The notes beneath the pieces were generated by a model, which made no database searches, had not been told where the DNA came from, and saw nothing but the letters and a program-made list of their open reading frames with translations. Positions 1 to 52,424 of a stretch of 64,000 nt of DNA are shown here, one piece after another. Position 1 is the first letter of the stretch, and each line of letters opens with the position of its first letter. The position numbers were made by a program, and so were the translations under genes. Source of the stretch: Dictyostelium discoideum (lineage: Eukaryota); contig CM000150.2 in NCBI GenBank assembly GCA_000004695.1, positions 1 through 64,000 on the forward strand, written 5' to 3'.

Positions 1-100
1 NNNNNNNNNNNNNNNNNNNNNNNNNNNNNNNNNNNNNNNNNNNNNNNNNNNNNNNNNNNNNNNNNNNNNNNNNNNNNNNNNNNNNNNNNNNNNNNNNNNN
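1..100. other. Run of N (assembly gap or contig edge)
   Basis: 100 consecutive n characters. Confidence 0.95.
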
Positions 101-8347: not shown

Positions 8348-10035
8348 CTTGAGGAAACATGTGACGATGATGACGAGGAACTTGAGCTTGAATCATCGGA
8401 TACCAAGTTGCTGATCTCCAGATTGGGAAGATCAGTATTATGGAAACCTTCTTCGAACTGGATGAGTTCATCTTCTCCAGGATAGAAGGCAAAAGAATGG
8501 GTGGTGGGAAGGCTAGACATTGCTTCTATTGACTCCAATCGAGGTGGAGTGCATTCATTCTTATTGTTGAGTAGTTGTTCGTTTGATGGTTGAGGTGAGA
8601 TGCGAACAGATCCATCTGTATTTGACCGAATTGAAGTTGGATGCGATTGAACACTTTCTTCTTCAGTTGCCAGTTGTAACTCTTGATTACTCTGGTCGAT
8701 GATTTGTGATTCATATCTGAAAGACGACTGAGGTGGTCGGCTTTTACATTGAAGAATCCTGGAATATGCTCTCCAATCAAGTTCACTTTCTTCTTGAGGC
8801 ATTGTTTCCAAAGTTGTTCGAACAGAACTGAGAGATCTTGTATCTGACCACCCTGGCGATTGATGTAAGAGAGAGTGGTAGTATTGTCGGTTTGAATCTT
8901 CAGCTTGCAGTTGTTCAGTTTCTGACAAAGCGCTTGATAAGCCATTAACAGCGCGAGCATTTCTCGACGATTTGACGACATGTTTGATTGAGTTGTTGAC
9001 CACTGGAATGACCAAGTTTTGATTACCTTGTTTCCTTTCTTGAGAGAGGCACCTGCACCTGATTCTGAGGCATCGGTTGTAAGAACATAGTCGTAACTTG
9101 GAAACAGACTGATTTCTTTTCCATTCCATTGGTTTAGAACTGTTAACACGTTGGAGTAAAAAACGCGCTTTGAATAACGGTTTGGAAGTACTTGTTCGAT
9201 GGCATCGTCTAATAACAAGTCTTGTACTTCCTTTGTGATGCAATCTGATTTCGGACCCTCTGGAATTGAAATCGGAATTGGGTTTAGCATCGGCTTGAAG
9301 TTTGGAAGCAGATGGACTTTTAATCCATTTACGACCTCTTGACAAAAGTTTGGAAGACCCAATTTTTTCCAAACTTGTTTGTGGTGGAACAGACGTCCAC
9401 CTACTGGTAAGTTTACTTCTTGTTCTTCTGAAAACGGTTGTTGGTACCGTTGGCAGACTTGGTATTGTTGCTACCTGATGCAACATTACTTGGTGATCCA
9501 TTGAAGTTGTTAGATCGGCCATTACTCCCACTACTGGATTTACTATTACTACTGTTTCCTGTAGTGTTATTACCACTTGAGTTAACTAATTTCTTGGCAT
9601 TGGGCTTGGAATGATAATTCAATTTTAACAATGATTATTTTGCTTCGTTGTTCTTTCTGATTGACTTGGCTAGCTTTCTTACACGTTCAGTTTCAGTTTC
9701 ATCAAACATCTTTGGTGTATCCTTGATCTTAATTGGTAAGAGTACTTCAGAACCATAGATTTCTTTAGCGATGTTTTTACGACGGACACGACTAAGCGAT
9801 GCTTGAGCATTAACGGCTAAGATGATTGTACTCTGAGTTAAGTAACTAATAAGTTCTACATCGACATTAGAGCTATCAGATGATAACATACTTGACATGA
9901 GAAGCAAAGGTTTCAAGCTATCGTTGATTCGCTTTTCAACAATCAACAAGTCAGTATCATTGTTCTTGACGTTGGATGATACAGTAATACCTTCAGGTGT
10001 ACCGAATGGAGCGACATTCACTTGGAAGTTAGATG
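8348..10035 (-). mobile_element. DIRS-1 fragment (ORF1 3' part through ORF2 5' part) in minus orientation with an internal deletion of about 1 kb
   Basis: Minus-strand ORFs 8308..9576, 8526..9362, 9413..9631 and 9635..10021 match DIRS proteins. A deletion junction is visible (FLLQRV|NSSKPMEWK). Confidence 0.8.
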
Positions 10036-17011: not shown

Positions 17012-17927
17012 CTAGAAATTGTATCCTATAGGTTTTTTATTGTTTTGATCATCATTATGTATTTCAATAATCTTGTTCTTTACCAATGTTTTCTTTTTAT
17101 TTAATGTTTCTAATAAAAACCTGTATCACCAATTTTAAATTGTTTTTTTGTTGATTTTGATGACCAATTGTTATTATATTTTTCAATATTTTTAAGAATA
17201 ATTTCTTGTCTTTGTTTATATGATATATCTGGTATACTAACTAACATTTTTCTCCTATATTTACATGAAATCCATTATCTAATGTAGCTGTTTGAAATAA
17301 TAATAATAACTGCATTTGCATTATTTGACCCTTCAATTATTATTGTTAAAATTTCGATTTTACAAAATTATAATTTAAATGTTAGAGTAAGTTTTTTTTT
17401 TAAAAAAAAAAAAAATAATAATAATTAATATAAATAACAAAAAAAAAAAAAAAAAAAGAAATAATAAAAAGTTATCTAATTTTCATTTTTTATTTTTTTT
17501 TATAATTTCAAAAAAAAAAAAAAAGAGATGGGAAACAATTTATAAAAAATCTTTTTTATAAATTTTAAGAGTACTCTTCCTTATGAAAAAGTAGTCCAAT
17601 ACCACGCCAAAAACCTAGCAGCTGCTCAAAGGCTACAAACCGCCCAGCAAGTCAACCTCCATACCACCAAAAGACTATTTGAAGATACTGACGATCTCAC
17701 TCAATCCCTCAAGCAAACATTAACAAAGAAGCGTAAGGAGCTAGACCAAGCACTCAACCACACCCAAAAAGAACTACAGGAGCCAAGAAAATCACATGAT
17801 AGTACGCAGAAAATGGCACAAAAGATCACTTAGAGCTGTACTCTTAATGAAGAACTCGCCAAAGAGCTCCTTAACTAAACCAAGCACAATAAAGATACCA
17901 TCGAAAGGATTATACCCGCTAGGCTAG

Positions 17928-18299
17928 ATGCCCCAGCAACGCCTCAAAGAGGTTACTCAACAAATAAAACACGCACAAGCAAAACAGATCGACGTAACAA
18001 AGGGAATTCAAGAACGATCCCAGCAAATAAAACAGCTTCAAGCCCAAATTGATGGAATAAACAAGCAATACCAGCCTTCTAGTCAAACTAGGCCGCTAGA
18101 AGAAGTGGAGCGTGAGCAGCAAGCACTTGAAGCGAAACTACAGCAACTCCTCAACGATTTTAGGAAAAAAAAAACACAGCTTGAGCAAGCCCAGAACCTA
18201 GCTCAAAAGGCCCAAGCAGATTTAGGGCAAGAAATAGCGCAAGAAAAAGCCAAACAAGATCAATTGGAGGCGACACAAAGAGCTAAAGGAACGCATTGA
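17928..18299 (+). pseudogene. Coiled-coil-like ORF fragment (Q/E/K/L-rich heptads) in island I1
   Basis: ...QIKQLQAQIDGINKQYQ...EREQQALEAKLQQLLNDFRKKKTQLEQAQNLAQKAQADLGQEIAQEKAKQDQLEATQRAKG. Surrounding frames are broken. Confidence 0.3.
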
Positions 18300-18751
18300 A
18301 GAAGGTAAAGTACTCAATGAGCAGGAACAAGAAGCTTGATTGATCAACAGCGCACCCCCAGCTGTTCATAGATCTCAAAGCGCCCGAAGTACCGCATTGA
18401 CTGAAAAAAAGAAAAGCTCTCTTGTATCGAAGAAAAGACGATCCGAGGCAGCTAGCCCATATGCGGCAACAGCAGCACCTTAACCTCAAAGAGAGGATGA
18501 TCGTGCTTCAAAATGCACAAACCATGCGTGAGCAAGCAGCTAGAAGAAAGGTAGAGTTTACTAACTCTAACGCTTCTTGCTGTAAAACAAGAAGTACACC
18601 AATCGCAGCAAACATGAGAGCAAGAAAACAAACGCATCATCGAAGAGAATGTTCAGGGTATAGCAGCGCTCACCAAAGAGCCCCACCAGGATAAAGAAAG
18701 GGAGAGCAGAAGAGACCAAGAAGATGTAAAAAATACAAAGAGAAAACAGGA

Positions 18752-19077
18752 GTGGGAAAACAGGGCATGGTATGTAAATTATGGGATTGGGTCAAAAAAA
18801 ATCCCATTACCGCAACTATTGTAGGGATTCTGGCTGTGGATGCATTGGTGTGTCTGGTTTCTTATGTGGTCCTACCATTATTAAAAAGCAGCATCGCGTC
18901 AACAGGAGCTGGTGGCTTTTTTGGTGGTTGTTTTCAACAAAACCCGGCTTATCTGTCTTTGGCTCATTTGCTGGTGGATGGTTAAACAATAATCTACAAC
19001 GGATTAATAATTGGGGCAATGGAAAAGGCTGGAAAACAAATGATGAGCTAAAAGCACCTTCCAAAAAAGAATTTTAG
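18752..19077 (+). pseudogene. Frameshifted ORF pair encoding two hydrophobic lobes (ITATIVGILAVDALVCLVSYVVLPLL and GLSVFGSFAGGWL)
   Basis: ORFs 18752..18985 and 18781..19077 overlap in two frames. The bilobed hydrophobic arrangement resembles membrane-insertion motifs of intracellular-bacterial proteins (speculative). Confidence 0.25.
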
Positions 19078-20254
19078 CATCTAAAAACCAACTTGGATAG
19101 GAACTCCAAGGGATACAACGTGATCTGCAAGAGGCGAAAAGAAAGTACATAGAGGAACGTGAAAAGGAAGCAGAAAAACCTGAGCAGGAGCAGGAAGAAG
19201 TTTCAGGGTAATAGTTAAACATCCTCGCTCAGCAATTCAATGCTTCTTCTGTGCAGCATGAGCCAATGTAAAACGTGACTAATCTGACCAAGCAGACACA
19301 GGAATTGCTAAAACAATGGGATACAAATAGGATGACCCTTCTCTATTCATGCAAAGCAGTGTTTTGCTAGATCAGATGGATCAGCAGATAGCGCAAGTGG
19401 AGGAAGCTAAAGAAGAGGTGTGCTACTTAAGAAGCAACCTGTCTTATCTGGTGAATTTAAAGGGAATTTACCAACTCAGAAAAGCGGCCCCGCAATCTTA
19501 ACTCGATACACTCATACAAGCCAAAGAGCAGCTATATCAAAGATCATTCGAGATACGCAACAAGAAGCCATGGTATTTGAGCAAGACTTTGAAAAAATAA
19601 CAAAGAAGCTCCATGATTTCTTATCCAGTCATGAGTACGTCCAAGAAGAATTTAAACCAACTACAACTGAGCAGCATGAACCTATCCTCACTAGACCTAC
19701 CATCGACTTGACAAACTCCCTCTCCCTAAGGCTTTAGAAGAATCAATTATGCTGCTTGCCGAAAAGATGAGCTATAATGGTTTAAAATTGGATTTTAAAC
19801 AAGCCAAGCAAGCACTAGAGAAAGATCATACTAATGTAGATTTAAAAGCCTTTAATAGGACTAAAATGGAGTTTAGCAATCATCCTCTACATCAAAAAAC
19901 CATTGAAATTGGTATGCAGAGGCAGGTTGTAAAGCTATCACCGGTTGCATTGGATTTATAGCGCAGGGTGTTAAAGTGGTAAAGGGGGCGAAGACGGAAT
20001 TTAAAACTTTGGCTGAACTAGGATTAAAAGATGGAATAAAAATTTCATATAACAGAGCTTTAGAATTAGGCGAATAATTTTTAGGAAATGATATAAAGAA
20101 TTAGTTCTTGGTAGCGGCAGATATATCTCTGTAGATGGTAAAAGAGCTTTTAAAAAGGGAACTAATGATATTATAGGCACTCGCATCAACTTAGAAACAT
20201 TAACTCTAAATCCTATAAAGAAGGGGAAAATGATGGTTGATCATAATTATTATT

Positions 20255-22545: not shown

Positions 22546-23291
22546 CTGGTAAGGTCACAGCAAAGAAAAATGCACCTTTAAAGCAAATTTAAAGCAAAGT
22601 TGATTTAAATTGGATTTAAATTGAATTTAAAGCCGCGTTTAAAAAATTCATATTTAAGGTAATTTTTAAGGTAATTTTTAAGATATTTAAAAATGCCTTT
22701 AAAATTTGCTTAAAAATTGCTTAAAAATTTATTTTAAAGGTGATTTTAAAGGTAATTTTAAAGGTAATTTTAAAGGTGGTTTTTAAGGTGATTTTTAAGA
22801 TGATTTTTAAGATATTTAAATAGGATTTAAAGTAGATTTAAAGTAGATTTAAAGTGAATTTAAATTTCCTTTAAATATAAATTTAAGGTTTTTAATAAAA
22901 AAGATCTAATTTTAGATAAAAAAAAATGGGGATAAAATATTCTATCATTTTTAAAATTTCATCAAAGCAATCAAATGGTGTAATGGTTGATGAGACTACC
23001 CTTTGATAGAGGGTCGGGGGATCGAATCCCTTTTGGTAATTTTTGAAAAATTAAAAAAAAATTAAAAAAAATTTTTCCTTTAAATAACGGCTTCGAACTC
23101 AGGACCTCGCTTTTAAAGCGATTAAAAAGGTAATTTTAAAGGTAATTTTAAAGGTAATTTTTAAGGTGATTTTAAAGTAACCTTAAAAATTACCTTTAAA
23201 ATTACCTTAAAAATTGCTTTAATTCAGGACTTTAAATTCGCTTTAAATTAAATTTAAATTTGCTTTAAAGGTGGTTTTTTCTTGGCTGTGG
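22546..23291. mobile_element. MITE (746 bp), complete, opposite orientation to 21645-22423, flanked by GT
   Basis: ggtaagGT[CACAGCAAAG...CTTGGCTGTG]GTaagataa, against the uninterrupted ggtaaggtaagataa at 42470. Confidence 0.85.
22966..23040 (+). other. tRNA-like segment inside the MITE core (not a clean cloverleaf)
   Basis: A perfect 5-bp stem ACCCT/AGGGT encloses the 7-nt loop TTGATAG (GAT in anticodon position, 23005-23007). It is followed by GGGGGATCGAATCCC (T-arm or B-box-like), an acceptor-like 7-mer and a T-run. D-arm and acceptor pairing cannot be completed. Confidence 0.3.
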
Positions 23292-26865: not shown

Positions 26866-27830
26866 TATGGCTTCACTTTAGCATCTGAGGGAGAAACGTA
26901 ATATTTTTTTATAATATGAAAAGCGTTGGGGCCTTCACAAATAGCAGGTCGATTATACTCTAATTTGCATTGAATGTGGTGCCCAAAACCTACTGGTATG
27001 GGATCGCTCGGTTATCCTTCATGATGTTTTCTGTTCTGGGGTTAATAAGCTGCCTAGCATCCTGATAGGGGGTAGGAATTGACGCTACCTGTTGCGGAGT
27101 TTGGAGGTCAATTTGGACCCGCATCAAATTCAAACATAACTTCGATAGCGATAGATTTAGTTGGTATAGATACACATAAGGTTATGCCAATGTCTGAAGG
27201 AAGTAGGTCGAAAAGTACTCAAAATAGGGTGCTTCCCATAAGCGGTGCAGATAGAGCGCCAATGGTTATTTCCCCATTTTTGTTGATGGTCAATTTGGAT
27301 ATCTTGAAACGGTATCTTCTTCTAGCCATCTAGTACAGGAACGGTGAGTCGATCTATTTGTTGAAAACTTAAAATATAGCAGCGGTTGTTGAAAGTTTGC
27401 TTATGATAATTACGATGTAGGTCCAATATANCTTTATCATAGGCGAGGAGCCAAGTAAAATATTCGATACAAGGCAGATAATGTAGGTCGATGAGAAAGA
27501 TCTTATTGTCCCAATACATGGGGAATTAGTAATTATTGCTTGGCATGTAAATCAACTGAAGTCTCGTCCTAGCTTGGGTTTACAGCCTGTCTATCAATAA
27601 AGCCTTCGAGTCTTGTCAAGGGGTAATGATCAGACAACAAGTCAAATCCTATACTCTATAAGCAGGCTTAGTCTAAGCAAGTAATAAATGAGTTCTTCCC
27701 ATGGACTTATTCGGAACAATGGGTTAATTTTTGTAGTTGTTTATTGAATATAATAAAGGGGATGCCGATCAATAAAGTAACCCAGCTAATAAGTTTAAAC
27801 ACTTCTAGATCTCCTAGGCTAATCGCTTTT
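26866..27830. other. Higher-G+C island I2 of unknown origin (contains one ambiguous base, n at 27431)
   Basis: Composition differs from the flanks. Only short ORFs without recognisable motifs. Bounded by DIRS ITR ends on both sides. Confidence 0.4.
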
Positions 27831-35775: not shown

Positions 35776-35919
35776 TTTTAATTTTAAATCTTATAATTTT
35801 TTTTTTTTTTTTATTATTTTTTTTCACTTGAAAAGGTGTAAACATAGAAGTAGAAGATATCATCTACTTTTCATATTAATTTAATATGAAGTTTTTAACT
35901 TGGAAAAATTAAATTTATT

Positions 35920-37600
35920 GAATATCAAAAAGAGCACCAAAATCAACAAGTTTTGTTTCATTTGATAAATCACTTCTGATTGTTTGGTATTTATTGACTA
36001 AATAGCCAATGACACACCACACATCGTGATGTCTTTCCAAAACTTTATCCATATCTATTGTATCGCTTTTAAATTTATATATAAGTGGTAGACTTGCTAT
36101 TTAAAATTGTTTAATTCTTGTAAATACGTTTTCTATAATTATTCTAATAGATTTTTGATTGTTATCTTTTTATTTTTGGTAATCAGTTCTTTGACCTGAT
36201 GGGATCGTAAATATATTTTTGAAATGTTTTGTTAAACCCCTGAATCTTTTGTCACCAAACACGGAATCAACATTTTCATCTAATGATTTAATAAATTCTA
36301 AATCTCTTTGAAATAAATTAATATCGTTTTTACAACCACCACTTGGGTACCCTATGTGTAATATTTTCCCACTATTAGGACAACAATAAACTAGTAGAGT
36401 TAAAGTTGATTTACATTTTTTACCACTGTATAACATATTTCTTAATTTTTCATTGGTGGGAATAGTTATTTGTTGTTCCGATCCATCCACCACCATTGTT
36501 ACTGTATATTGTTTAACACCATCATTATAGTCACAACTATTTGATTTATCTTTTCTATCATTAAATATTGATTGGAAATTATTAATTGCTAATTGTTTTG
36601 TATATATTATATATTCATCAACATATCTTTTTAAAGTTCTGGTATCAATATTAAAAAGAACTTCCATTATAACAGGTCATGTATAGTGGCGAAAATAAAT
36701 GCAATATAGTTTCTTTCGACCCCTTTTTTCACCATTTTTAACAACCAACTTTTCTAAAATGTAGTCATTGAAATTTTCGTATGATATTCCAATTAAAGAT
36801 AAAAATTTATCCTTTAATTTTTCAATGGATACATTTGTTAAAAATTGTCTTTTATTTTTATTTTTTTGTTTTGATATTTTTGGAATTACCTTTTGGTTTT
36901 CCTTGAACCAACTCTTGTTCATCCTCTTCTTCTTCTTCATCATTTTTTGATTTTGATCTTGTTTTAATTGGTTCTTTTTTATCTTTTGATTTTTCATCTT
37001 TTTCTTCTTTTTCTTTTTCTTTTTCTTTTTCTTTTGGGGAGAATCTTCTTATAATTGTCTCCATGGTTTGTGTATATTGTTTCAATTTTACTGGTGAATT
37101 TACATTTGATATTTGTTTTGTTTGTTGAGTCGATTCTATCTGTTGAATGGGTTCAATGTTTTCAATGGTTTCGATTGGTTGTTTGGACTGATTTTGATGT
37201 TTGAACTAGCTGTGATTCATCTTTGAAGAAATTTAGTTTTAATTCATTTGTTCTTTTTCTTTTCCACCTTTCTTCACTTGAGAGTGAACAATTATTCATA
37301 TTTTATTCAACAAAGTTCAATTTAAAAGTTAATTCTTCAACTTTTTTTGATAATTCTTCTATCTGTTTTTGTTTATCATTAAATTGTTCAATTGTTGGAA
37401 ATCTTTCAATTTCATTTTCATCTAGTTTAACATTTATACATTTATGAACATGTTCTTGAATTAATTCAATCGTTTTGGCTGAAAATTCAATTACACAATT
37501 ACATATAAAACATTCAGTTGTAAACTTTTTCATATTAAATTTTATATTGTAAAACAAAAAAAAAAATTTAACAAAAAAAAACAAATTTTTTTTTTTTTAT
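35920..37600 (-). mobile_element. Harbinger/PIF-like DNA transposon remnant (DDE_Tnp_4-type transposase), degenerate
   Basis: Minus ORF 36170..36667 carries MVVDGSEQQITIP (DG-hip), GYPSGGCKNDINLFQ (pGS-hD) and VFGDKRFRGL (GDsgY) in the order and spacing typical of PIF/Harbinger DDE transposases. The N-terminal piece 36677..36997 is in another frame. A small C2HC-like ORF lies at 37303..37584. Confidence 0.55.
36170..36997 (-). pseudogene. Harbinger/PIF-like transposase, split by a stop or frameshift
   Basis: See parent feature. Two adjacent frames are separated by a stop. Confidence 0.5.
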
Positions 37601-39884
37601 TTTTTTTTGTTTTTTTTTTTTGCGGAAATTTATGATATATTTTTGTTCTTTTTCATTTCCATTAACAATAATATGTTTAAGTTTGATATTATTAATTATT
37701 AATTCAGTCCCAAATAATTCATTATAATCATCATTAAATAAGTTGCTAAATGATTATATTGATTTGGTTTTAAGTTTCTAACAATTATTTGATTGATAAA
37801 ATCTGTGACTGATTTATTTTCTTTTACATGCAACTGATTATCTTCTTTCCTTTGTATATTGGATGACATATCTGGATTAGAAACAAATTTGGAATTGATT
37901 AGACACTTTCGGAGAACATTCGAGACAATTCTGACCATGATTTGAGCTTGACCATTACCATGATGGTGGTAAGGCAGACATGTATTGTGAGTAATATTGT
38001 TGACTTGAATACATTTCTTCCAAGGTGTTGATGTGAACAAAGTATCATTATACTCAACTTGATCAACAGTACAGGCATCCAACCCGGATATAAAGTCCAT
38101 ATTGATTTCCATAAAGCATCAGACAGGTAAATGAGATGGCAAGTATAATCCCATGTTCATCTGTGGCGCATAAACAAACATTGCAACTCTTGCAGTAAAA
38201 TAAGATATATTCCATCATTCCATACCAATAAAAATTTCTCTTGACTAATTCAGAAGTTTTACGATTACTCCAGTGTCCAGCAATAGCAGAATCATGATAA
38301 CTTGAAATGACTAACTGTATGACATCTTCAATCTTGATCCATTCGATACCATTCTGATATGTGATACTTAAACTTTTATACTGGTCGTTGATGGTTTCAG
38401 ATTTAATAAGTTTAGCTTCCAATTCATAACCTTTTAAAATTTCCTTAACGATCTTCATTTCATCAAGAATGATACCTGTATTAAAATAATTTTTATCACA
38501 AAAAGAATTTTTAAGAGAGTTAGTAATTTGAGAGAAGTCCATTTTACTTCGATCGAAGTTATGTGATAAATATTATTATTATAATGTGATCTGAAAGACC
38601 ATCAGCGGCTGAATTGGTGACGCCTTTGATGTATTCAAGTGTGACTTTTCAGGCATCAATCTTCTGCATCCATCTGTTGATTCTTTGATTTAACCCAAGG
38701 ACCCTTTGGTTTCTTAGGAATTAAATATTATTATGATGATTACCTTGAACCCAAAGATATTGAAGTGATGCATTTCTAATGATTTCACGAATAGGCTTCC
38801 TTTTCTAACACATTCAAGGTAGAATGGATACTTGGTATTTGGAAGGTTGAGACTTACCGCATTGGCTACAGCTGATTTAACTTGATCAAAAGCCAATTGC
38901 ACCTCAGTATCCCATGTGAAAGCAGAATTCTTCTTAGTGAGACGATAGAGTGGATCAGCTATAATGGCTAAATTTCGGATGAAATCCTTGCAATAATTAA
39001 CGGTTCCCATAAATTATCTAACGGTAGTCTTATCAATTGGTTCTGGCCACTCGACGATTTGACACGGATGAAGAGTTGTACTACATTACATTGAGGTTAT
39101 GATACTTGAGCTTATTGAATACCTGTGATAAATCTTGTTTATGTTGATCATAATAAAAAGATTTTGTTAGTACTAAAATATCATCGATATAGACCACGAC
39201 GAGTCCTCAATCGATTTCATCGGCCAATATTTGTTACATAAATCTTTGAAAAGTATACGGTGCATTCTTGGCACCGAATGGCATTCCCCTCCACTGGAAT
39301 GTACCAAAAGGTGTATGGAATGCTGTCTTTGACCGATCTCTAGGTTCTACTTGGATCTGGTGGAAACCATCGGCTAAATCGATCCTGGACATTAACTTTG
39401 CACCTTTGGTCTTCTGGATGAGTACCGTTGTATTTGGAAGTGGATAACTATCATAAATAGTAAAGTCATTTAATGAACGGTTATCGATGCACATTCACCA
39501 CTTACCATTTTTCTTCTTTGCGAATATCACTGGTGCACCGAATTCTGATTTGTTTCTTTCAATCCATAACTTCTTTAACCTTTCAGTAAGTTGATCTTTC
39601 AATTCTTGTTATATTGACAATAGTACTGGATAACATCTTGATTTTGGAACTTGTGCACCATATTTTAACTTCACTTCAAAATTGAAACCTTTCCGAGATG
39701 GCGGAACTTGGTCTAATGAATCGAAGACTTCCTTGTAGTTTCCCTTCAGATGTTTGATGATGAATTGATCTTGAACTTCTTTCCATTCTTGGTGTTTTAC
39801 TTCCACTACCTTGTATTTCTCTTGATTTGGCTGATGATTAACTTTGTGAACTTGGTACGTTGGTTGATGATTGAAGACCTCTTG
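37600..39884 (-). mobile_element. Ty3/gypsy LTR-retrotransposon pol fragment (Skipper-like), degenerate, RT through integrase
   Basis: Minus ORFs give the RT block YPLPNTTVLIQKTKGAKLMSRIDLADGFHQIQV...MPFGAKNAPYTFQRFM (39234..39494), the integrase zinc region H..H...C..C (38063..38542) and the integrase core ...HHGNGQAQ... (37699..38112). Multiple stops and frameshifts. Confidence 0.7.
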
Positions 39885-44127: not shown

Positions 44128-44770
44128 CACAGCAAAGAAAAATGCACCTTTAAAGCAAATTTAAAGCAAAGTTGATTTAAATTTGATTTAAATTGAATTT
44201 AAAGCCGCATTTAAAAAATTCATTTTTAAGGTAATTTTTAAGGTTATTTTTAAGATATTTAAAAATGCTTTTAAAATTTGCTTTAAAATAAATTTTTAAG
44301 CAATTTTAAAGGTGATTTTAAAGGTGATTTTAAAGGTGATTTTTAAGGTAATTTTTAAGATAATTTTTAAGATATTTAAAAATACCTTTAAAATTTATTT
44401 TAAATTAATTTTAAATTGAATTTAAGTAGATTTAAAGTAGATTTATAGTGAATTTAAATTTCCTTTAAATATAAATTTAAGGTTTTTAATAAAAAAGATC
44501 TAATTTTAGATCAAAATGGGGATAAAATATTCTATCAATTTTAAATTTTCATCAAAGCAATCAAATGGTGAAATGGTTGATGAGACTACCCTTTGATAAA
44601 GGGTCGGGGGGTNGAATCCCTTTTGGTAATTTTTGAAAAATTTAAAAAAAAAATTAAATAATTTTATCCGTTAAATAACGGCTTCGAACTCAGGACCTCG
44701 CTTTTAAAGCGATTAAAAAGGTTATTTTAAAGGTAATTTTTAAGGTGATTTTAAAGTAAACTTTTAAATT
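44128..44770. mobile_element. MITE, truncated (one arm plus core)
   Basis: CACAGCAAAGAAAAATGCACCTTTAAAGC... through the tRNA-like core (n at 44613), ending near ...gattaaaaaggttatttt. Confidence 0.7.
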
Positions 44771-44789
44771 TTTCAAGTAGCTTTAAACT

Positions 44790-45649
44790 TATTGAGTTTT
44801 CAATTCCCAACATTAAACACCGTCCAATAGCTCGTTAGTGGATATAATTCTTTCGTGGAACGTTTTAATGTGCGGGTGTTTCCGCGCCAATGACGGCTAG
44901 CTGGTGGTCGCTTTTTGTAATAACGAACAAGATTGAACAGAGATATCATCATTTGCGATCAACTTAAATAAATAGTCGACAGTCTGGGGAGTAGTGGGCA
45001 TTTCTGGATCGATAAGGTAAGCGTGACGATCATTTTAAATGGTTTCGCCTAAGCCCTTAACTTTACGTGCAACCATCTCAGTAAATTGCTCTGTGGTTAT
45101 TACACCCGCTGTGAGGTCTTGTTTACAGTTAGCGTACCATTGATCTAATTTTTGATTTGGTGTTTGTTTCATGATTGATACTCACTAATGGCTGATAGTA
45201 TTTAATGGGATGCGTGTTTCTTCAGACGACGCTGTAATACCGAATAGCCTTTGTTGAACCGTTCAGCATATAAATTTGACAAGCCGTTATACTGTATGAT
45301 GCGCCGCCATCCATCCGATGCTTACTGCTCAAATGAGGCTGCTGAACGACACAGTACCTTGAATGCCGGCATTAGATTCGATCACCTCATTGCTGGTTTC
45401 AAATGACACTGGCGCACGTCCGACGACCAGACCATCTTTAAGATTGTCGTAAGCTGTTGCGTACTGTAGCAAAGCACGTTTGAAATATAAATTGATTACC
45501 ACAACTAGAACGTTAGGGTTACGTATAGTATACTCAATTAACCAGCGAGTTTTCCCAGTTTGACGTGAGCCACTGAAGCCAATTGTAAACAACTCTCGTA
45601 AATGACATGCCTTAGTACCGCCAAGATTATTAGCAGCGCTACGCATTAT
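44790..45649 (-). other. Higher-G+C island I3: phage-like DNA with a terminase-large-subunit-type ATPase fragment
   Basis: Minus ORF 45329..45646 contains GFSGSRQTGKTRWL. The SRQTGKT box closely matches the T4 gp17 Walker A box SRQLGKT. Downstream frames are broken. Confidence 0.45.
45329..45646 (-). pseudogene. T4-type large terminase N-terminal ATPase fragment (Walker A SRQTGKT)
   Basis: See island I3. Only about 105 codons are open. Confidence 0.4.
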
Positions 45650-46104
45650 TTAAAAATTTAATTTATTAAATTATATTTTATATTAAATATATATATATAT
45701 ATTATGAATAACATTTATTTATTTGAATTTCCCAAATATTTAAGATAATTTTTTAGAATGTTCTAGAACATTCGAAGAATAAAAAAAAATTTTCGAAAGA
45801 AAAGTAAAAATTTCGAACCGGCACAATGACGCGATCATTGTGTAAGGTCGAAAAACTGAAAAATTCCGAACCGACACTATGCACAAAGTTGTGAAGGGTC
45901 GAAAACTCTTATTTTTTTGAGTTTTGCGAAATTTTTAAGAAAATAAAAACGTATAAATAGTGGCACAAAAAACTAAAACAATTTGATTTATGGAATTCCG
46001 ACTAAGGGCGGGTGGGATGGGACTAATATATATATATATATTTAATATAAAATATAATTTAATAAATTAAATTTTTAATTTATATTATCATATATATATA
46101 TATA

Positions 46105-49100
46105 TTATGAAATTTGGACGACAGTATTTAAGAAACCACCAGATTTTTCACCAATGATTCTTTTATCGTAGAAGGTATCTACAGTATCATTTGATTTCCA
46201 ACGACCCATCTTCTTAACAACGTGGAACGGAACGTTATTGGACAACAGCAGAGAAGCCATAGCGGAACGGGTAGAGTGAGATTTGAACTTGACAATATCA
46301 ATACCTGACTTTGAGAGTGTTGATAGTACAATTGAGTTAATATCATTAACTTGGAGCGGTTCACCCTCATTCTTAATAAAGACAGAGTCACCCGAATGGG
46401 GCTTTCTTCTTCCTTTAGAGGCTCTAAGGTATGTTGCAAGGTGGCGAACAGGGCATACTTGAGAGTTTGTATCATCTAACGATGTTAATTCTAATATTGA
46501 AACAACACCACTTCTTTGTTCTTTAGCATTAATAACTGGACCTTTAATTGAGTCAGTAGTAATAATGAGACCTTTGAACGACCACTTCACCAAGTCTGAT
46601 GATCTTGCTAAACCAAACATTTTACAGAGTACAAGTGTCTTGTTTAATAGCGCAGTGTATGTGTACTTAGGGATAACTTTGATAGTAGATAAGTGCTTGA
46701 ATACTTGATTTGCATCCCATATCTCTTTATACTTTGCAGATGAAGGACGCAACTTGTGAATACCAGTCATAATTCTTGTGATGAATGGATCATTAACAAT
46801 ATCAGTTTGATTCCTGAGGAGTAACAACTGATTCAACATAGAGCGATGACCGTTAATTGTTGAGAAGGCTAACGGAGGTTTGTGTTTGAATAGATGTGTA
46901 AGATAATCCATGAAAACAACTAAGGTAATGTTTGCTGGATTCAAAGAGTTCAAAGTACAGAAATTGCGGAATCTTGTATAACTGGAGCTATATACTTTGA
47001 GAGTTGAAGGTTCCCAAGACTTCATTAACAGCTCAGCTGTTTTTGTATTTGCTGTACGAGCGAAGGACATTACATGAGATTGGAAAGTTGAATAATCCCC
47101 AGTTTCCAACGTTGTTGAATCTGGATTGGTATCGACTCTACTGATTGTTTGGTCAATACTTCTTGGAATGTTCCCAGTACTTGAGGGAACATGTGACGAT
47201 GATGACGAGGAACTTGTGCTTGAATCATCGGATACCAAGTTGCTGATCTCCAGATTGGGAAGATCAGTATTATAGAAACCTTCTTCGAACTGGATGAGTT
47301 CATCTTCTCCAGGATAGAAGGCAAAAGAATGGGTGGTGGGAAGGCCAGACATTGCTTCCATTGACTCCAGTCGAGGTGGAGTGCATTCATTCTGATTGTT
47401 GAGTAGTTGTTCGTTTGATGGTTCAGGTGAGATGCGAACAGATCCATCTGTATTTGACCGAATTGAAGTTGGATGCGATTGAACACTTCTTTCTTCAGTT
47501 GCCAGTTGTAACTCTTGATTACTCTGGTGGATGATTTGTGATTCATCTCTGAAAGACGGCTGAGGTGGTCGGCTTTTACATTGAAGAATCCTGGAATATG
47601 CTCTCCAATCAAGTTCACTTTCTTTTTGAGGCATTGTTTCCAAAGTTGTTCGAACAGAACTGAGAGATCTTGTATTTGACCACCCTGGCGATTGATGTAA
47701 GAGAGAGTAGTAGTGTTGTCGGTTTGAATCTTCAGCTTGCAGTTGTTTAGTTTCCGACATAGCGCTTGATAGGCCATAAGCAGCGCGAGCATTTCTCGAC
47801 GATTTGACGACATGTTTGATTGAGTTGTTGACCACTGGAATGACCAAGTTTTGATTACCTTGTTTCCTTTCTTGAGTGTGGCACCTGCACCTGATTCCGA
47901 GGCATCGGTTGTAAGAACATAGTCGTAACTTGGAAACAGACTGATTTCTTTTCCATTCCATTGGTTTAGAACTGTTAACCAATGCGAAATCTCTGACTTG
48001 ACCTCTTGGGGAATGGGGAATGATTGATCCCAATCTCCTTTGGCTATAGTCAGACACTGAGAGTGAAACTTGTTTGTTCGACGAGTGTAAAGTCTGAATG
48101 GGATGACTGCATCTTTCAGTGCGATTAACTTTCCTTTTAAACCAGCAAGCTTTCTTGGGGAGCAACAATCTAGTTTTAAAAAGTTTCTTATTTCTTTGAT
48201 GACACTTTTCTTCTTTTCTTTGGGAACAAGAAGCTTCATTGATACCGAATCGATTTGTAATCCGAGAAACGTAATTGATTGAGTTGGTTCGAGAACACTC
48301 TTTTCTAGATTTAACTTGAAGCCTAGTTTGACAAGTAAGTCCATTGTCTTTTTGAGGTTGGATAAACATTCTTCTTTTGTTGAACCGACGATTAATAGAT
48401 CGTCCAAGTAAGCGATGACGGATACGTTGATATCTCTCAACATTCGAAGTACAGGTCTTAACAGCATTGTAAATATACGAGGAGCTGTCGATAACCCGAA
48501 CGGCATTGTTTTCCAACGGTAGTGCGAACCTTTCCACACGAAGCGGAATAAGTCTCTGTATTGTGGATCTACTAACACGTGGAGGTAGGCTTTCTTGATA
48601 TCGAGTTTTACCATGTAATAACCTTGTTTGACCATTGACGGTAGATTCTTGATTCCTTCCATCTTGAATGATTGGTTGTTGATGTAAGTGTTTAACCTTT
48701 TTAGATCGAGAACTGGACGATGTAGATTCGTTCCAGGTTTTGGAACCGTAAACACGTTGGAGTAAAAAACGCGCTTTGAATAACGGTTTGGAAGTACTTG
48801 TTCGATAGCATCGTCTAATAACAAGTCTTGTACTTCCTTTGTGATGCAATCTGATTTCGGACCCTCTGGAATTGAAATCGGAATTGGGTTTAGCATCGGC
48901 TTGAAATTTGGAAGCAGATGGACTTTTAATCCATTTACGACCTCTTGACAAAAGTTTGGAAGACCCAATTCTTTCCAAACTTGTTTGTGGTGGAACAGAC
49001 GTCCACCTACTGGTAAGTTTACTTCTTGTTCTTCTGAAAACGGTTGTTGGTACCGTTTGCAGACTTGGTATTGTTGCTACCTGATGCAACACTACTTGGT

Positions 49101-49182
49101 GATCCATTGAAGTTGTTAGATCGGCCATTACTCCCACTACTGGATTTACTATTACTACTGTTTCCTGTAGTGTTATTACCAC
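46105..49182 (-). CDS. DIRS-1 recombinase-containing ORF (1025 aa), copy J
   Basis: Full length with a C-terminal ...GRWKSNDTVDTFY. Confidence 0.8.
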   Translation of the reverse strand: MVITLQETVVIVNPVVGVMADLTTSMDHQVVLHQVATIPSLQTVPTTVFRRTRSKLTSRWTSVPPQTSLERIGSSKLLSRGRKWIKSPSASKFQADAKPNSDFNSRGSEIRLHHKGSTRLVIRRCYRTSTSKPLFKARFLLQRVYGSKTWNESTSSSSRSKKVKHLHQQPIIQDGRNQESTVNGQTRLLHGKTRYQESLPPRVSRSTIQRLIPLRVERFALPLENNAVRVIDSSSYIYNAVKTCTSNVERYQRIRHRLLGRSINRRFNKRRMFIQPQKDNGLTCQTRLQVKSRKECSRTNSINYVSRITNRFGINEASCSQRKEEKCHQRNKKLFKTRLLLPKKACWFKRKVNRTERCSHPIQTLHSSNKQVSLSVSDYSQRRLGSIIPHSPRGQVRDFALVNSSKPMEWKRNQSVSKLRLCSYNRCLGIRCRCHTQERKQGNQNLVIPVVNNSIKHVVKSSRNARAAYGLSSAMSETKQLQAEDSNRQHYYSLLHQSPGWSNTRSLSSVRTTLETMPQKESELDWRAYSRILQCKSRPPQPSFRDESQIIHQSNQELQLATEERSVQSHPTSIRSNTDGSVRISPEPSNEQLLNNQNECTPPRLESMEAMSGLPTTHSFAFYPGEDELIQFEEGFYNTDLPNLEISNLVSDDSSTSSSSSSSHVPSSTGNIPRSIDQTISRVDTNPDSTTLETGDYSTFQSHVMSFARTANTKTAELLMKSWEPSTLKVYSSSYTRFRNFCTLNSLNPANITLVVFMDYLTHLFKHKPPLAFSTINGHRSMLNQLLLLRNQTDIVNDPFITRIMTGIHKLRPSSAKYKEIWDANQVFKHLSTIKVIPKYTYTALLNKTLVLCKMFGLARSSDLVKWSFKGLIITTDSIKGPVINAKEQRSGVVSILELTSLDDTNSQVCPVRHLATYLRASKGRRKPHSGDSVFIKNEGEPLQVNDINSIVLSTLSKSGIDIVKFKSHSTRSAMASLLLSNNVPFHVVKKMGRWKSNDTVDTFYDKRIIGEKSGGFLNTVVQIS
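47070..48968 (-). CDS. DIRS-1 RT/RNase H/MT ORF (632 aa), copy J
   Basis: Carries YLDDLLIVG and TDASESGAGA. Confidence 0.85.
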   Translation of the reverse strand: MGLPNFCQEVVNGLKVHLLPNFKPMLNPIPISIPEGPKSDCITKEVQDLLLDDAIEQVLPNRYSKRVFYSNVFTVPKPGTNLHRPVLDLKRLNTYINNQSFKMEGIKNLPSMVKQGYYMVKLDIKKAYLHVLVDPQYRDLFRFVWKGSHYRWKTMPFGLSTAPRIFTMLLRPVLRMLRDINVSVIAYLDDLLIVGSTKEECLSNLKKTMDLLVKLGFKLNLEKSVLEPTQSITFLGLQIDSVSMKLLVPKEKKKSVIKEIRNFLKLDCCSPRKLAGLKGKLIALKDAVIPFRLYTRRTNKFHSQCLTIAKGDWDQSFPIPQEVKSEISHWLTVLNQWNGKEISLFPSYDYVLTTDASESGAGATLKKGNKVIKTWSFQWSTTQSNMSSNRREMLALLMAYQALCRKLNNCKLKIQTDNTTTLSYINRQGGQIQDLSVLFEQLWKQCLKKKVNLIGEHIPGFFNVKADHLSRLSEMNHKSSTRVIKSYNWQLKKEVFNRIQLQFGQIQMDLFASHLNHQTNNYSTIRMNALHLDWSQWKQCLAFPPPILLPSILEKMNSSSSKKVSIILIFPIWRSATWYPMIQAQVPRHHRHMFPQVLGTFQEVLTKQSVESIPIQIQQRWKLGIIQLSNLM

Positions 49183-50026
49183 TTGAGTTAACTAATTTCT
49201 TGACATTGGACTTGGAATGATAATTCAATTTTAACAATGATTGTTTAGCTTCGTTGTTCTTTCTGATTGACTTGGCTAGCTTTCTTACACGTTCAGTTTC
49301 AGTTTCATCAAACATCTTTGGTGTATCCTTGATCTTAATTGGTAAGAGTACTTCAGAACCATAGATTTCTTTAGCGATGTTGTTACGACGGACACGACTA
49401 AGCGATGCTTGAGCATTAACGGCTAAAACGATTGCACTCTGAGTTAAGTAACTAATAAGTTCTACATCGACATTAGAGCTATCAGATGATAACATACTTG
49501 ACATGAGAAGCAAAGGTTTTAAGCTATCGTTGATTCGCTTTTCAACAATCAACAAGTCAGTATCATTGTTCTTGACGTTGGATGATACAGTAATACCTTC
49601 AGGTGTACCGAATGGAGCGACATTCACTTGGAAGTTAGATGGAAAGTTGAATACTTTATTCAATTCGGATATTTCATCTTTCTTGAGGATACATTCTTCT
49701 TCGACGAGTAAACCTTGATTGTTAACCATATGTTTGTACTGACCAAGTAAGGTATCGGATAATTGATAATCGGTTGGAACATCGACATTGTTACTTGATT
49801 CATCTTCACTTTGTTCATTCTCGGTGTCAGAGTCATCATGAGAAGGTTGGCTACGTGAATTGGTATTAGATGAGAACATAGGTTCTTTCATGAATCTTGT
49901 AAAGGCTAAGGAAAGGTTGTTGATTTGATCCTCCATTGATTTCATTCTTAAATCAAAGGATTCAGCGCTATTAGAGACAGAGGTACTACTACTAGAGGCA
50001 TCATTATTATTAACAGTGGTAGACAT
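49019..50026 (-). CDS. DIRS-1 ORF1 Gag-like (335 aa), copy J
   Basis: Full length. Confidence 0.8.
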   Translation of the reverse strand: MSTTVNNNDASSSSTSVSNSAESFDLRMKSMEDQINNLSLAFTRFMKEPMFSSNTNSRSQPSHDDSDTENEQSEDESSNNVDVPTDYQLSDTLLGQYKHMVNNQGLLVEEECILKKDEISELNKVFNFPSNFQVNVAPFGTPEGITVSSNVKNNDTDLLIVEKRINDSLKPLLLMSSMLSSDSSNVDVELISYLTQSAIVLAVNAQASLSRVRRNNIAKEIYGSEVLLPIKIKDTPKMFDETETERVRKLAKSIRKNNEAKQSLLKLNYHSKSNVKKLVNSSGNNTTGNSSNSKSSSGSNGRSNNFNGSPSSVASGSNNTKSANGTNNRFQKNKK

Positions 50027-50486
50027 ATTTTATTGTTGATATCTAAAATTATAATATGAGAAAAATAATAATATTAAAAATTAATAAAGAGAAATAATTA
50101 TTTGTATAAAATTTGTGTGTGTGTGTATCTTAAATATATATAGGAGGAATTCCCAAATAAAATAAATCAAATTGTTTTAGTTTTTTGTGCCACTATTTAT
50201 ACGTTTTTATTTTCTTAAAAATTTCGCAAAACTCAAAAAAATAAGAGTTTTCGACCCTTCACAACTTTGTGCATAGTGTCGGTTCGGAATTTTTCAGTTT
50301 TTCGACCTTACACAATGATCGCGTCATTGTGCCGGTTCGAAATTTTTACTTTTCTTTCGAAAATTTTTTTTTATTCTTCGAATGTTCTAGAACATTCTAA
50401 AAAATTATCTTAAATATTTGGGAAATTCAAATAAATAAATGTTATTCATAATATATATATATATATGATAATATAAATAATCGCAA

Positions 50487-51585
50487 TACTTTTCTCAAGT
50501 TCTTGAACTATCGCATCATAATCAATGGTAGAAGTCATGATTTTTTACCTCATTTATTTAAGTGGTTGTATGAACCCACAGGGTTATAGTCCTCATAAAC
50601 AGGAAGTAGTAGACCAGGTGCATTAGGCATTATTATTAATACACGCTGACCACGCACATAAGGTTGGTTGTTAACATATTTAAAATCAGTTGCCACATAG
50701 CCTTTTGGAATTTCCATGTTAAACTAATCCTCTTAATAGGTGACCGATGGCGGGGTTGACCGTCAGACTTCTACAACACCCAACCACGTAATATCGGAAG
50801 TGCTTCTGTCATTGTTCTTTTATTTTTAGATGCTACGCGGTTGATTGTGGTTTACTTACACCAAAGTGTAAGCGTCGGTTATTTGCTGGCATACTTTCAG
50901 ACACGTCCCAAGTCTCCAATTCACCGCCTTCCGCTATTAAGGGTGCCTAATGACGGACATTCATCTCAAAATAAAACCAGGAGGGGTAAAACCATCCTAT
51001 ATACTAATCTTACGGACGTGGTGATATCGAATACCACATTCTGTAATTTAGATCATGATCGGTGTTATTTATTTAATGTTTTGGCTATTGCTATAACCGA
51101 CCAAGCTACTGTGTTTCCACAGAAATGACTCGAACCATCGACCCACAGCGTGTATATAGTGAGCTGGTGGTTTAACCTCCCAAGGGCGGTGTTCGACTAT
51201 TCGTCAAACGATGACAAGCTTTTTAATTTAATTAAACTACCACACCATCTACAATTTCGATTTTGGTAGAAGAGTTAGATTCAGTTAACGCGTAATCAAT
51301 GTTGGCTTCGAAATCCAGAATCTCTTTTTCCTACTGCTTGATTACTTTGCTGATCTCCAGCGGATACAGCACGCCTGGCTGATAACGTTCGATAACTGGA
51401 TTAACGAACGCAGCAATGGAAGCTTCATCGGCTTTCTTAGTACCGTTGAATGCTTCGGTGCGCGCGATATTTTCACGCTGGTCAAAATTGGAGTTACCGT
51501 TGTGACGAGATATCGATTCGTAGTTCGCTTTCAAAGCTTTGACAATATCGCGTTTCTCACCTAATGCATTATGTGCATGTGCAGC
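50487..51585 (-). other. Higher-G+C island I4: bacterial or phage-like operon fragment
   Basis: The minus strand has a small ORF (MEIPKGYVATDFKYVNNQPYVRGQRVL...NHLNK*) whose stop overlaps the next start in a taaATGa arrangement, preceded by gaggtaaaaaatcATG (Shine-Dalgarno-like). That next gene (MTSTIDYDAIVQELEK...) is cut by the DIRS ITR. A further ORF lies at 51331..51534. Confidence 0.45.
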
Positions 51586-51987
51586 AAAGAAAAATCCACA
51601 TTTAAAGCAAATTTAAAGCAAAGTTGATTTAAATTGGATTTAAATTGAATTTAAAGCCGGGTTTAAAAAATTCATTTTCAAGGTAATTTTTAAGATAATT
51701 TTAAGATATTTAAAAATGCTTTAAAATTTATTTTAAAATAATTTTAAAGAGGATTTAAAGTTGATTTAAAGTAGATTTAAAGTGAATTAAAATTTCCTTT
51801 AAATATAAATTTAAGGTTTTTAATAAAAAACATCTAATTTTAGATCAAAAAAATGGGGATAAAATATTCTATCATTTTTAAATTATCATCAAAGCAATCA
51901 AATGGTGAAATGGTTGATGAGACTACCCTTTGATTGATGAGACTACCCTTTTGGTAAATTTTCAAAAAATTTAAAAATTTAATTTAT
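51586..51987. mobile_element. MITE fragment (one arm plus a partly deleted tRNA-like core)
   Basis: gtgCAGCAAAGAAAAATCCACATTTAAAGCAAATTTAAAGC...tgatgagactaccctttgat|tgatgagactacccttttggtaa. Confidence 0.65.
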
Positions 51988-52424
51988 TAAATTATATTTT
52001 ATATTAAATATATATATATATATATTATGAATAACATTTATTTATTTGAATTTCCCAAATATTTAAGATAATTTTTTAGAATGTTCTAGAACATTCGAAG
52101 AATAAAAAATTTTCGAAAGAAAAGTAAAAATTTCGAACCGGCACAATGACGCGATCATTGCGACAGGTCGAAAAACTGAAAAATTCCGAACCGACACTAT
52201 GCACAAAGTTGTGAAGGGTCGAAAATACTTATTTTTTTTGAGTTTTGCGAAATTTTTAAGAAAAGAAAAACTTATAAATAGGGCACTAAAAACTAAAACA
52301 ATTTGATTTATGGAATTCCGACTAAGGGCGGGTGGGATGGGACTAATATATATATATATTTAATATAAAATATAATTTAATAAATTAAATTTTTAATTTA
52401 TATTATCATATATATATATATATA

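Follow-up and report, generated by a model that had tools for sequence, protein, structure and literature searches.

Very probable relic of a phiKZ-like jumbo phage, decayed and split by a transposon, in the centromere region of Dictyostelium discoideum chromosome 1

Nuclear genomes of eukaryotes are known to contain non-functional insertions of prokaryotic or viral DNA, and gene transfer into phagotrophs from their food is described by the "you are what you eat" model. To our knowledge, transfer of bacteriophage DNA into eukaryotic nuclear genomes has rarely been documented, and the cases usually concern single functional genes. The DNA considered here is a 64,000-nt stretch of chromosome 1 of Dictyostelium discoideum AX4 to which all coordinates refer (hereafter the window; labels beginning with L and P denote compared loci and proteins), and the element in question is a G+C-rich island at 44791-45650 in the centromere region. 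This island very probably belongs to an old, dead and collinear fragment (2.8 kb or more) from a jumbo phage related to phiKZ, a member of a nucleus-forming group. The surrounding centromere sequence is mostly, not wholly, transposon (PMC2665215).

The island is set apart from its surroundings by base composition, with a G+C content of 0.38-0.44 over about 44750-45650 as compared with 0.15-0.26 in the left flank and 0.23-0.27 in the right flank; in a self-comparison of the window, 44792-45643 (G+C 0.42) occurs only once. An earlier note on this DNA, made from the letters alone, had described a G+C-rich island with minus-strand open reading frames (ORFs) between a miniature inverted-repeat transposable element (MITE) and the inverted terminal repeat (ITR) of a DIRS element. 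The G+C profile and the reading of the ORFs confirm this description, as do the MITE-like repeat at 44128-44790 on the left and the DIRS-1 ITR, present many times in the window, that begins at about 45651 on the right, and the borders of the island, refined by comparison with an uninterrupted paralog, lie within 1-2 bp of those given there. The foreign DNA and the elements that border or interrupt it are arranged in the window as follows.

44128 to 44790, plus strand: MITE-like element, full-length (about 663 bp), the left border of the foreign DNA.
44791 to 45650, minus strand: foreign block 1; it holds two-thirds, the 3' part, of a decayed P-loop gene (phrog_2586 / phiKZ gp297 family).
45651 to 50477, minus strand: complete DIRS-1 of 4827 bp, inside the P-loop gene after codon 20-21.
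50478 to 51581, minus strand: foreign block 2, about 1.1 kb of the same foreign segment, G+C-rich and single-copy in the window.
51582 to 51993, plus strand: second copy of the MITE, within the phrog_1491 gene, its far end cut by another DIRS ITR.

The affiliation of the island is revealed chiefly by the P-loop gene, whose pieces in the window are listed here from the 5' end of the gene.

50478 to 50538, minus strand: P-loop gene, codons 1-20, MTSTIDYDAIVQELEKSIAI, cut off from the rest by DIRS-1.
45329 to 45646, minus strand: 105-aa ORF reading MRSAANNLGGTKACHLRELFTIGFSGSRQTGKTRWLIEYTI..., equal to gene model DDB_G0267234.
45548 to 45568, minus strand: Walker A motif or P-loop, SRQTGKT, read directly; the family consensus is G-x-RQ-x-GKT.
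45035 to 45172, minus strand: 45-aa ORF MKQTPNQKLDQWYANCKQDLTAGVITTEQFTEMVARKVKGLGETI, sharing the frame of the 105-aa ORF and collinear with that ORF, corresponding to positions 115-144 of the family profile.
44917 to 44982, minus strand: LSTIYLS*SQMMISLFNLVRYY, in another frame and with a TGA stop inside, also collinear, corresponding to profile positions of about 150-170.

The 105-aa product is the same protein as XP_647778 / DDB_G0267234 (P0009) of AX4 chromosome 1. It matches the PHROGs family phrog_2586, annotated as "unknown function", with an expect value (E) of 1.2e-7. When it was compared by tblastn with 50,697 phage records, 66 records matched and every one was a jumbo phage, with hosts among Salmonella, Erwinia, Serratia, Klebsiella and Pseudomonas; the top match was Salmonella phage SA002 (46% identity over residues 23-89, E 9e-13), and the phiKZ ORF PHIKZ297 was also recovered. 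An exhaustive HMMER search of 1.84 billion representative proteins returned eight matches, namely two Dictyostelium gene models and six proteins of 168-194 aa. Two of these six are encoded on contigs of 280-288 kb, where they adjoin phiKZ inner-body protein and tubulin-like genes, one belongs to the 279-kb Serratia phage Totoro, and one was seen solely on contigs of 2-4 kb. All eight full-length phage homologs tested fall in phrog_2586 (best E 6.6e-48), and a family hidden Markov model (HMM) built here matches the 105-aa ORF over profile positions 27-121 with an E of 3e-24; in the family alignment, R49, Q50 and G52 are invariant. Thus, the claim of the earlier note that the island derives from a phage and is not native to Dictyostelium is borne out, the tblastn matches being to jumbo-phage proteins only, while its more specific affiliation is not: the relatives are phiKZ-like jumbo phages and not T4-like Tevenvirinae, and where terminase hits had been expected, only a non-terminase family of jumbo phages was matched. 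No account of the function of gp297 was found in the literature, and a search of the PDB with the family profile found no sequence relative.

The phage proteins extend about 22 residues 5' of the start of the window ORF, and that point is the DIRS junction. A six-frame search of the whole window with the family HMM located the missing N-terminus, MTSTIDYDAIVQELEKSIA, at 50482-50538 on the minus strand (profile 1-19, E 5.8e-4, 21.7 bits; 0 of 2000 shuffles scored as high). This piece, on the far side of DIRS-1, carries the N-terminal I-x-YDAI-x-QEL motif of the family and is 76% identical to residues 1-17 of phage homolog P0008; a Shine-Dalgarno-like TGAGGT lies 8 nt upstream. In the paralog L010, the N-terminal piece and block 1 are contiguous. 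The ATG of the 105-aa ORF appears to be fortuitous, because its frame crosses AATAATGCG where a paralog protein has ...INNERSAANN....

Downstream, the gene is more difficult to follow. Apart from the 105-aa and 45-aa ORFs, the other frames of block 1 are broken. The 45-aa ORF gave a weak, post hoc match to the family profile (domain E 0.059, 6.1 bits; 0 of 2000 shuffles reached the score), and tblastn against the phage records gave no independent phage homolog for it and no match for a 73-aa frame downstream. Probably this ORF represents the middle part of the P-loop gene in decayed form, so that the small ORF described in the earlier note is present, its separateness being what the profile match speaks against. 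The third piece, LSTIYLS*SQMMISLFNLVRYY, gave a similarly weak and post hoc hmmsearch match (E 0.08; 3 of 2000 shuffles reached the score) and is a probable relic of the Walker-B strand and the helix that follows, with Ser and then a stop in the window copy at the position of the family's invariant Asp. In the C-terminal region, where the family has an h-h-h-D strand followed by KYY-x-WLA...TW-x-I-D/N, the window holds a weak, frameshifted TIYLS*...VRYY relic, and the final motif is not recognisable. A candidate for the family C-terminus picked out by eye in minus frame 1 at about 45190-45290 (QIYMLNGSTKAIRYY...LVSIN) was rejected because it received no score from the family HMM. On balance the whole island would seem to be one decayed gene with a short 3' flank, a reading held with fair confidence because the pieces are collinear, beside their weak profile scores.

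Block 2 continues the same foreign segment upstream of the P-loop gene and contains the following features.

51232 to 51581, minus strand: phrog_1491 gene, C-terminal half only, interrupted by a TAG in frame (51331-51333); the 5' half has been removed from the window copy.
50874 to 50972, minus strand: intergenic element of about 100 nt, TTTTGAGATGAATG...CACC..TAAT.GC...GGCGG.GAAT.GGA.ACTTGGGA...TGAAAGTA.
50550 to 50717, minus strand: 55-aa ORF MEIPKGYVATDFKYVNNQPYV..., with the canonical bacterial ribosome-binding site AAGAGGA upstream, conserved at L010 11739-11906.

The phrog_1491 piece is 45.5% identical by tblastn (E 2e-22) to proteins of the Erwinia phages Ea35-70, RAY and Desertfox and 42% identical to that of SA002; it covers profile positions 104-209 of 211 (E 9e-20), and its relatives in RefSeq jumbo phages are labelled "tail fiber protein". 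The 55-aa ORF has no detectable homologs, its PHROGs and Pfam matches being insignificant. Between the two lies about 500 bp of non-coding DNA that includes the intergenic element, which by blastn is 76% identical in DNA to SA002 176586-176684, a stretch with no annotated feature. The same element is found at L003 5612-5706, in L011 and L012 (metagenomic jumbo phages), at L001 2776-2874 and, in Dictyostelium, at L010 11480-11580, and in the phages it stands just 5' of the P-loop gene. Between the Dictyostelium relic and the jumbo phages, this element is more conserved than the flanking genes. RNAalifold found a few compensatory pairs in a 3' hairpin, which, from five sequences only and with a single-sequence z-score of 0.4, do not establish a structure, and a search of 44700-51700 against Rfam at E up to 1, the element included, gave no match.

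The gene order of the segment is likewise that of a phage. The reconstructed Dictyostelium segment (2820 bp, G+C 0.41) reads tRNA-Leu(UAA), phrog_1491 "tail fibre" gene, intergenic element, small ORF and phrog_2586 P-loop gene, and carries AAGAGGA and GAGG ribosome-binding sites as prokaryotic signals. In SA002 and in a 288-kb metagenomic phage (L006), the phrog_1491 gene is followed by the P-loop gene in the same order and orientation, about 0.9-1.9 kb apart; SA002 and contigs of the P0002 type (L003) are collinear with the segment over the intergenic element and the P-loop gene, and Erwinia phage Desertfox is collinear with it over the phrog_1491 gene and the DNA downstream. The donor is thus attributed to a phiKZ-like jumbo phage because the segment is collinear with the genomes of such phages. 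No near-identical phage was found in INPHARED, IMG/VR, the GTDB genomes or a collection of 5.8 billion proteins. As DNA, block 1 had no match in the 50,697 phage records or in all 5,426 complete E. coli genomes; a scan of IMG/VR for exact 48-mers found nothing, protein-seeded scans of IMG/VR and of the GTDB genomes found no relatives, and a motif scan of IMG/VR returned only further SA002-like contigs at about 43% identity.

The DIRS-1 that separates the two blocks has ITRs at 45677-45991 and 50477-50162 that are 99.4% identical, and its 1025-aa ORF (46105-49182) contains a tyrosine-recombinase domain (PF00589, 36.7 bits against a gathering threshold of 27.1). Its junctions read GCGATTA|DIRS-1|ATAATGCG, and the uninterrupted site in L010 reads GCGATTAATAATGCG; the insertion thus neither duplicated nor removed bases of the target, and the junctions overlap by 0-1 nt. 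DIRS elements integrate without target-site duplication. The MITE at 44128-44790 matches, by self-BLAST, 16999-16317 (92%), 22425-21724 and 22556-23165. Its terminal inverted repeats of about 27 bp, CAGTGAAAGAAAAACCACCTTTAAAGC ... GCTTTAAATGTGGATTTTTCTTTGCTG, were read in the L010 copy (10273-10895), and internally it has a tRNA-B-box-like GAGTTCGAAGCC. Tandem repeats of the type AAGGT(G/A)ATTTTTA are also carried by the element, and in L010 an apparent TACA duplication flanks it. The second copy, at 51582-51993, matches 44130-44664 at 84-85% in the same orientation. In L010, a complete MITE parts the two halves of the phrog_1491 gene, and L009 lacks the MITE.

The phage segment is present in several diverged copies. 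In AX4, two further gene models derive from such copies: DDB_G0267284 (61 aa, 97% identical, with an earlier stop) and DDB_G0267318 (48 aa, 93% identical, with a phage-like N-terminus joined straight to the rest). A protein search with the phrog_1491 fragment found two copies in a separate D. discoideum assembly, GCA_054883475.1 (contigs JBTAPE010000022.1, which holds L010, and JBTAPE010000037.1), and these differ in their transposon and deletion states. In L010, block 2 (97.9% identity by substitutions) runs directly into block 1 (98.3% identity, L010 11985-12414) with no DIRS-1 between them, and the product of its P-loop ORF is exactly DDB_G0267284. Relative to the window, L010 shows a 400-bp deletion. 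Beyond its MITE it retains the N-terminal half of the "tail fibre" gene, together with another 856 bp of foreign DNA in which there lies, at 9780-9869, a bacterial-type tRNA-Leu(UAA) gene that encodes its CCA end and is structurally intact (ARAGORN; Rfam 50.7 bits against a gathering threshold of 29). This tRNA gene is 76-86% identical to those of jumbo and other large phages; its block is missing from the window copy, and ARAGORN found no tRNA in the window. In SA002 and phiKZ, the P-loop homolog likewise adjoins tRNA genes.

The lesions in these copies are revealing of their history. The window and L010 have in common the TAG in the "tail fibre" gene, where a third copy, L009 (91-92% identical), has TTG (Leu), as well as the TGA in IYLS*, and probably also a 2-bp frameshift after SIAINN, as judged by comparison with the DDB_G0267318 protein. 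Private to single copies are three deletions (400, 46 and 15 bp), the DIRS-1 in the window and, in L010, one more TAG. Because the copies mix shared and private lesions, neutral decay after duplication is indicated. DDB_G0267234, DDB_G0267284 and DDB_G0267318 are probably open fragments of pseudogenes of one phage gene and unlikely to be real genes.

The following history is proposed. Phage-infected prey bacteria or ingested virions would have been taken up by the phagotroph, and phage DNA would have entered the nuclear genome by end-joining into heterochromatin, lodging in the DIRS-1 cluster of the chromosome-1 centromere region, with the direction of transfer presumably from phage to amoeba. 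The insert would have been neutral in this transposon-rich cluster, where insertions are tolerated, and segmental duplication within the cluster would have raised it to at least three or four copies. The copies accumulated stops, frameshifts and deletions, a MITE was inserted in the "tail fibre" gene, and in the window copy a DIRS-1 was inserted in the P-loop gene. The segment would appear to have no present function.

Several points weigh against this account. The physical continuity of the segment, as read from the genome sequences, rests on two assemblies, whose strains may both be laboratory strains of the NC4 lineage; the protein of one copy is identical to an AX4 model. The attribution to a jumbo phage is at the family level, at about 45% protein identity. 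The L009 site lacking the MITE has 18 nt where the other copies have 4 nt and the MITE, and is not a clean empty site. The placement of the 45-aa ORF and the third piece draws on weak post hoc matches (E 0.06 and 0.08), and their assignment to a single gene would imply that a region variable in the family is longer here by about 50 residues. Finally, the absence of function is deduced from the lesions, and roles at the level of RNA (the tRNA, small RNAs) are possible.

The last point leads to the first alternative, that the segment has been domesticated or is otherwise functional, as a P-loop protein, an expressed tRNA-Leu(UAA) or a site for RNA polymerase III or TFIIIC in centromeric chromatin. 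Three of its ORF fragments are annotated as genes, the tRNA gene in L010 is structurally intact, and the non-coding element is unusually conserved relative to the phages; UUA is the commonest Leu codon in Dictyostelium. However, every coding part is broken by stops, frameshifts, deletions or transposons, the lesions differ among copies as neutral decay predicts, the window copy is entirely without the tRNA, and the Walker-B relic has lost the invariant Asp. Function of this kind is therefore considered very unlikely.

A different donor is comparably improbable, whether a bacterium, a plasmid or an amoeba-infecting giant virus with jumbo-phage-like genes, as is the spread of the copies as transposon cargo. 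With the best identities at only about 45%, the true donor is unsampled, and a second relic of bacterial type, a WbqC-family frame described below, lies in the same window. Nevertheless, the two gene families occur together in this order and with the intergenic element only in genomes of phiKZ-like phages, and no relatives were found in 185,579 prokaryotic species genomes. In favour of transposon cargo, the foreign DNA is bracketed by copies of the MITE; because the outer boundaries of the copies differ and the internal MITE is shared, duplication followed by independent insertions fits better than transposition as a unit.

Contamination is a still poorer explanation. The earlier note had weighed contaminating phage DNA mis-joined into the contig against a genuine captured fragment, and the second of these options is favoured by the transposon insertions in phage genes, the diverged paralogs and the independent assembly. 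A chimera carrying phage DNA from food bacteria or a cloning host might be suspected from the prokaryotic composition and gene signals, from the Ns within the window and from the manual reconstruction of the chromosome-1 centromere region from shotgun reads (PMC2665215). A run of about 100 Ns opens the window (1-100), and single Ns stand within repeats at 44614 and about 27431; such Ns fit a manually reconstructed, Sanger-era assembly of the region. Contradicting contamination, DIRS-1 splits one phage gene with both junctions fitting to the base and a MITE sits inside its neighbour; at least three to four copies, 91-98% identical, are disabled by mutations of which some are shared and some private; the copies are found again in a separate assembly, where one product is identical to DDB_G0267284; the ORFs are broken, unlike those of a live phage; and neither the 5,426 E. 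coli genomes nor the phage databases searched yielded a match or a near-identical phage, respectively. These observations tell against contamination because a live phage contaminant would have intact genes in a single version with no host transposons inside them. Genuine residence follows because a complete DIRS-1 separates the N-terminus from the rest of the gene by 4.8 kb, the junctions are exactly complementary and the paralog is uninterrupted. The phage DNA is thus truly resident in the D. discoideum genome, and contamination or mis-assembly is effectively excluded.

Weakest is the proposal of the earlier note that the island is a fragment of the large terminase gene of a T4-type (Tevenvirinae) phage, bearing the Walker A box of its ATPase domain, which has next to no chance of being correct. 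The SRQLGKT given there for T4 gp17 is accurate (residues 161-167) and shares 6 of 7 residues with SRQTGKT; P-loops of the form RQxGKT are typical of gp17-like terminases, and the predicted fold, an additional-strand catalytic-glutamate (ASCE) or RecA-like P-loop domain, belongs to a broad class that includes terminase ATPases. The S/G-RQ-x-GK-T/S Walker A motif, present as SRQTGKT, is nonetheless common to many P-loop proteins and insufficient by itself, and the likeness to gp17 is confined to this 7-mer (BLASTP E 0.49); hhalign of the family profile against gp17 gave a probability of 1.5% across 17 columns. Pfam gave no matches for the fragment and no terminase family in the eight full-length homologs at E up to 10, all of which, as noted, belong to a PHROGs family of "unknown function". 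T4-type large terminases combine an N-terminal ATPase with a C-terminal RNase-H-like nuclease in about 500-700 aa, whereas the homologs here have 168-194 aa, a P-loop near residue 50 or so and, in the AlphaFold model, a single domain without a nuclease. In the phages they adjoin tRNA, small hypothetical and "tail fibre" genes and not small-terminase or portal genes, and neither the DNA search nor the protein search of the phage records matched a T4-like phage. The AlphaFold model of a full-length homolog (mean predicted local distance difference test 80, predicted template-modelling score 0.80) derives from a shallow alignment of six sequences, which leaves the fold comparison short of decisive; against the PDB, Foldseek gave as its best matches generic RecA-like domains (domain 1) of DEAD-box helicases, weakly (E of at least 1e-3, template-modelling score about 0.4), and no terminase among the top 50. 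Membership in the T4-type terminase family was therefore refuted, as there is no similarity past the P-loop, no nuclease domain and no packaging context, and the protein is predicted to be a small ASCE-type P-loop nucleoside triphosphatase.

Other parts of the window also depart from the sequence around them. In the DIRS cluster, 26870-27828 is a single-copy block (37-40% G+C) in which a broken minus-strand frame at 27325-27525 gives a match to the bacterial family WbqC (PF08889: 36.2 bits, gathering threshold 21.3; E 7.6e-9); its phage matches are only weak ones, to two unannotated faecal "Bacteriophage sp." contigs. By its sequence match, this block would be a second relic of prokaryotic type, apparently independent of the first. 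A 2.7-kb single-copy block at 17509-20239 (40% G+C) has a composition unlike Dictyostelium coding sequence and broken plus-strand frames rich in Q/A/E coiled coil, such as MPQQRLKEVTQQIKHAQAKQ... at 17928-18296, and had no Pfam, PHROG or phage match. The other unique G+C-rich segments of the window do not come from the same phage, having no phage match or only weak ones to unrelated contigs. Judged by eye, the frames at 37659-39884 resemble the reverse transcriptase and integrase of a long-terminal-repeat retroelement, and those at 35826-37535 a DDE-type transposase; both regions are single-copy in the window.

It is conceivable, if improbable, that the centromeric DIRS cluster acts as a standing sink for prey DNA and holds independent prokaryotic and phage relics, namely the jumbo-phage block with its apparently intact tRNA-Leu(UAA) in one paralog, the WbqC-type fragment and the 2.7-kb block at 17509-20239; if so, the raw material that feeds the "you are what you eat" ratchet could be observed there directly. 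In a bolder form of this idea, the phage tRNA gene or the RNA-like intergenic element would be transcribed or bind TFIIIC and in this way contribute to centromeric chromatin or transposon targeting. The G+C-rich unique blocks of the Dictyostelium centromere are worth screening for other foreign DNA. What the phage segment itself offers is a multi-gene, collinear piece of a lytic jumbo phage, fossilised in a bacteria-eating model organism, with a phage tRNA in one paralog and with a long residence recorded both by transposon timestamps, one of which has an uninterrupted empty site in a paralog, and by diverged paralogs. The dictyBase/RefSeq models DDB_G0267234, DDB_G0267284 and DDB_G0267318 should be re-annotated as pseudogene fragments, and the locus provides a clean insertion/empty-site pair for studies of DIRS-1 integration, together with a MITE-present/MITE-absent pair whose site is not clean. 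The literature search found no published description of phage DNA in Dictyostelium or of the gene model DDB_G0267234. Within the literature that could be searched, no fragment of a jumbo phage with several genes had thus been described from the Dictyostelium centromere, although foreign-DNA fossils are known from eukaryotes. The biological weight of the segment is moderate because it has no evident function.

Compared with the systems it most resembles, the locus is closest to the phiKZ gp297 family. The Dictyostelium copies have in common with that family the I(N)YDAI.QEL motif, the G.RQ.GKT Walker A and the next helix, with 36-46% identity across about 70-90 residues, and in both the gene lies downstream of the phrog_1491 gene and the conserved intergenic element. 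Unlike the phage genes, the Dictyostelium copies are pseudogenes with stops and frameshifts, the window copy is split by DIRS-1, the C-terminal KYY-WLA...TW-I-D/N motif is mostly lost, and the variable middle may hold about 50 extra residues. With T4 gp17, the ORF of the island shares a P-loop that is 6/7 identical and the general class of ASCE P-loop NTPases, but gp17 is about three times the size of a gp297-family protein, has a nuclease domain, and comes from another genomic context and another phage group. The inserted element is like other DIRS-1 of Dictyostelium in its ITRs, its tyrosine recombinase, its length of about 4.8 kb and its integration free of target-site duplication; here it is the interrupting element, of interest as a timestamp and for its clean insertion/empty-site pair. 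Finally, nuclear integrations of prokaryotic or viral DNA, such as Wolbachia-to-insect transfers and endogenous viral elements, likewise consist of DNA from prey or associates that was fixed in gene-poor repeats, where it decays neutrally and is duplicated; unlike in those cases, the donor here would be a lytic jumbo bacteriophage and the site a DIRS-1 centromere cluster.

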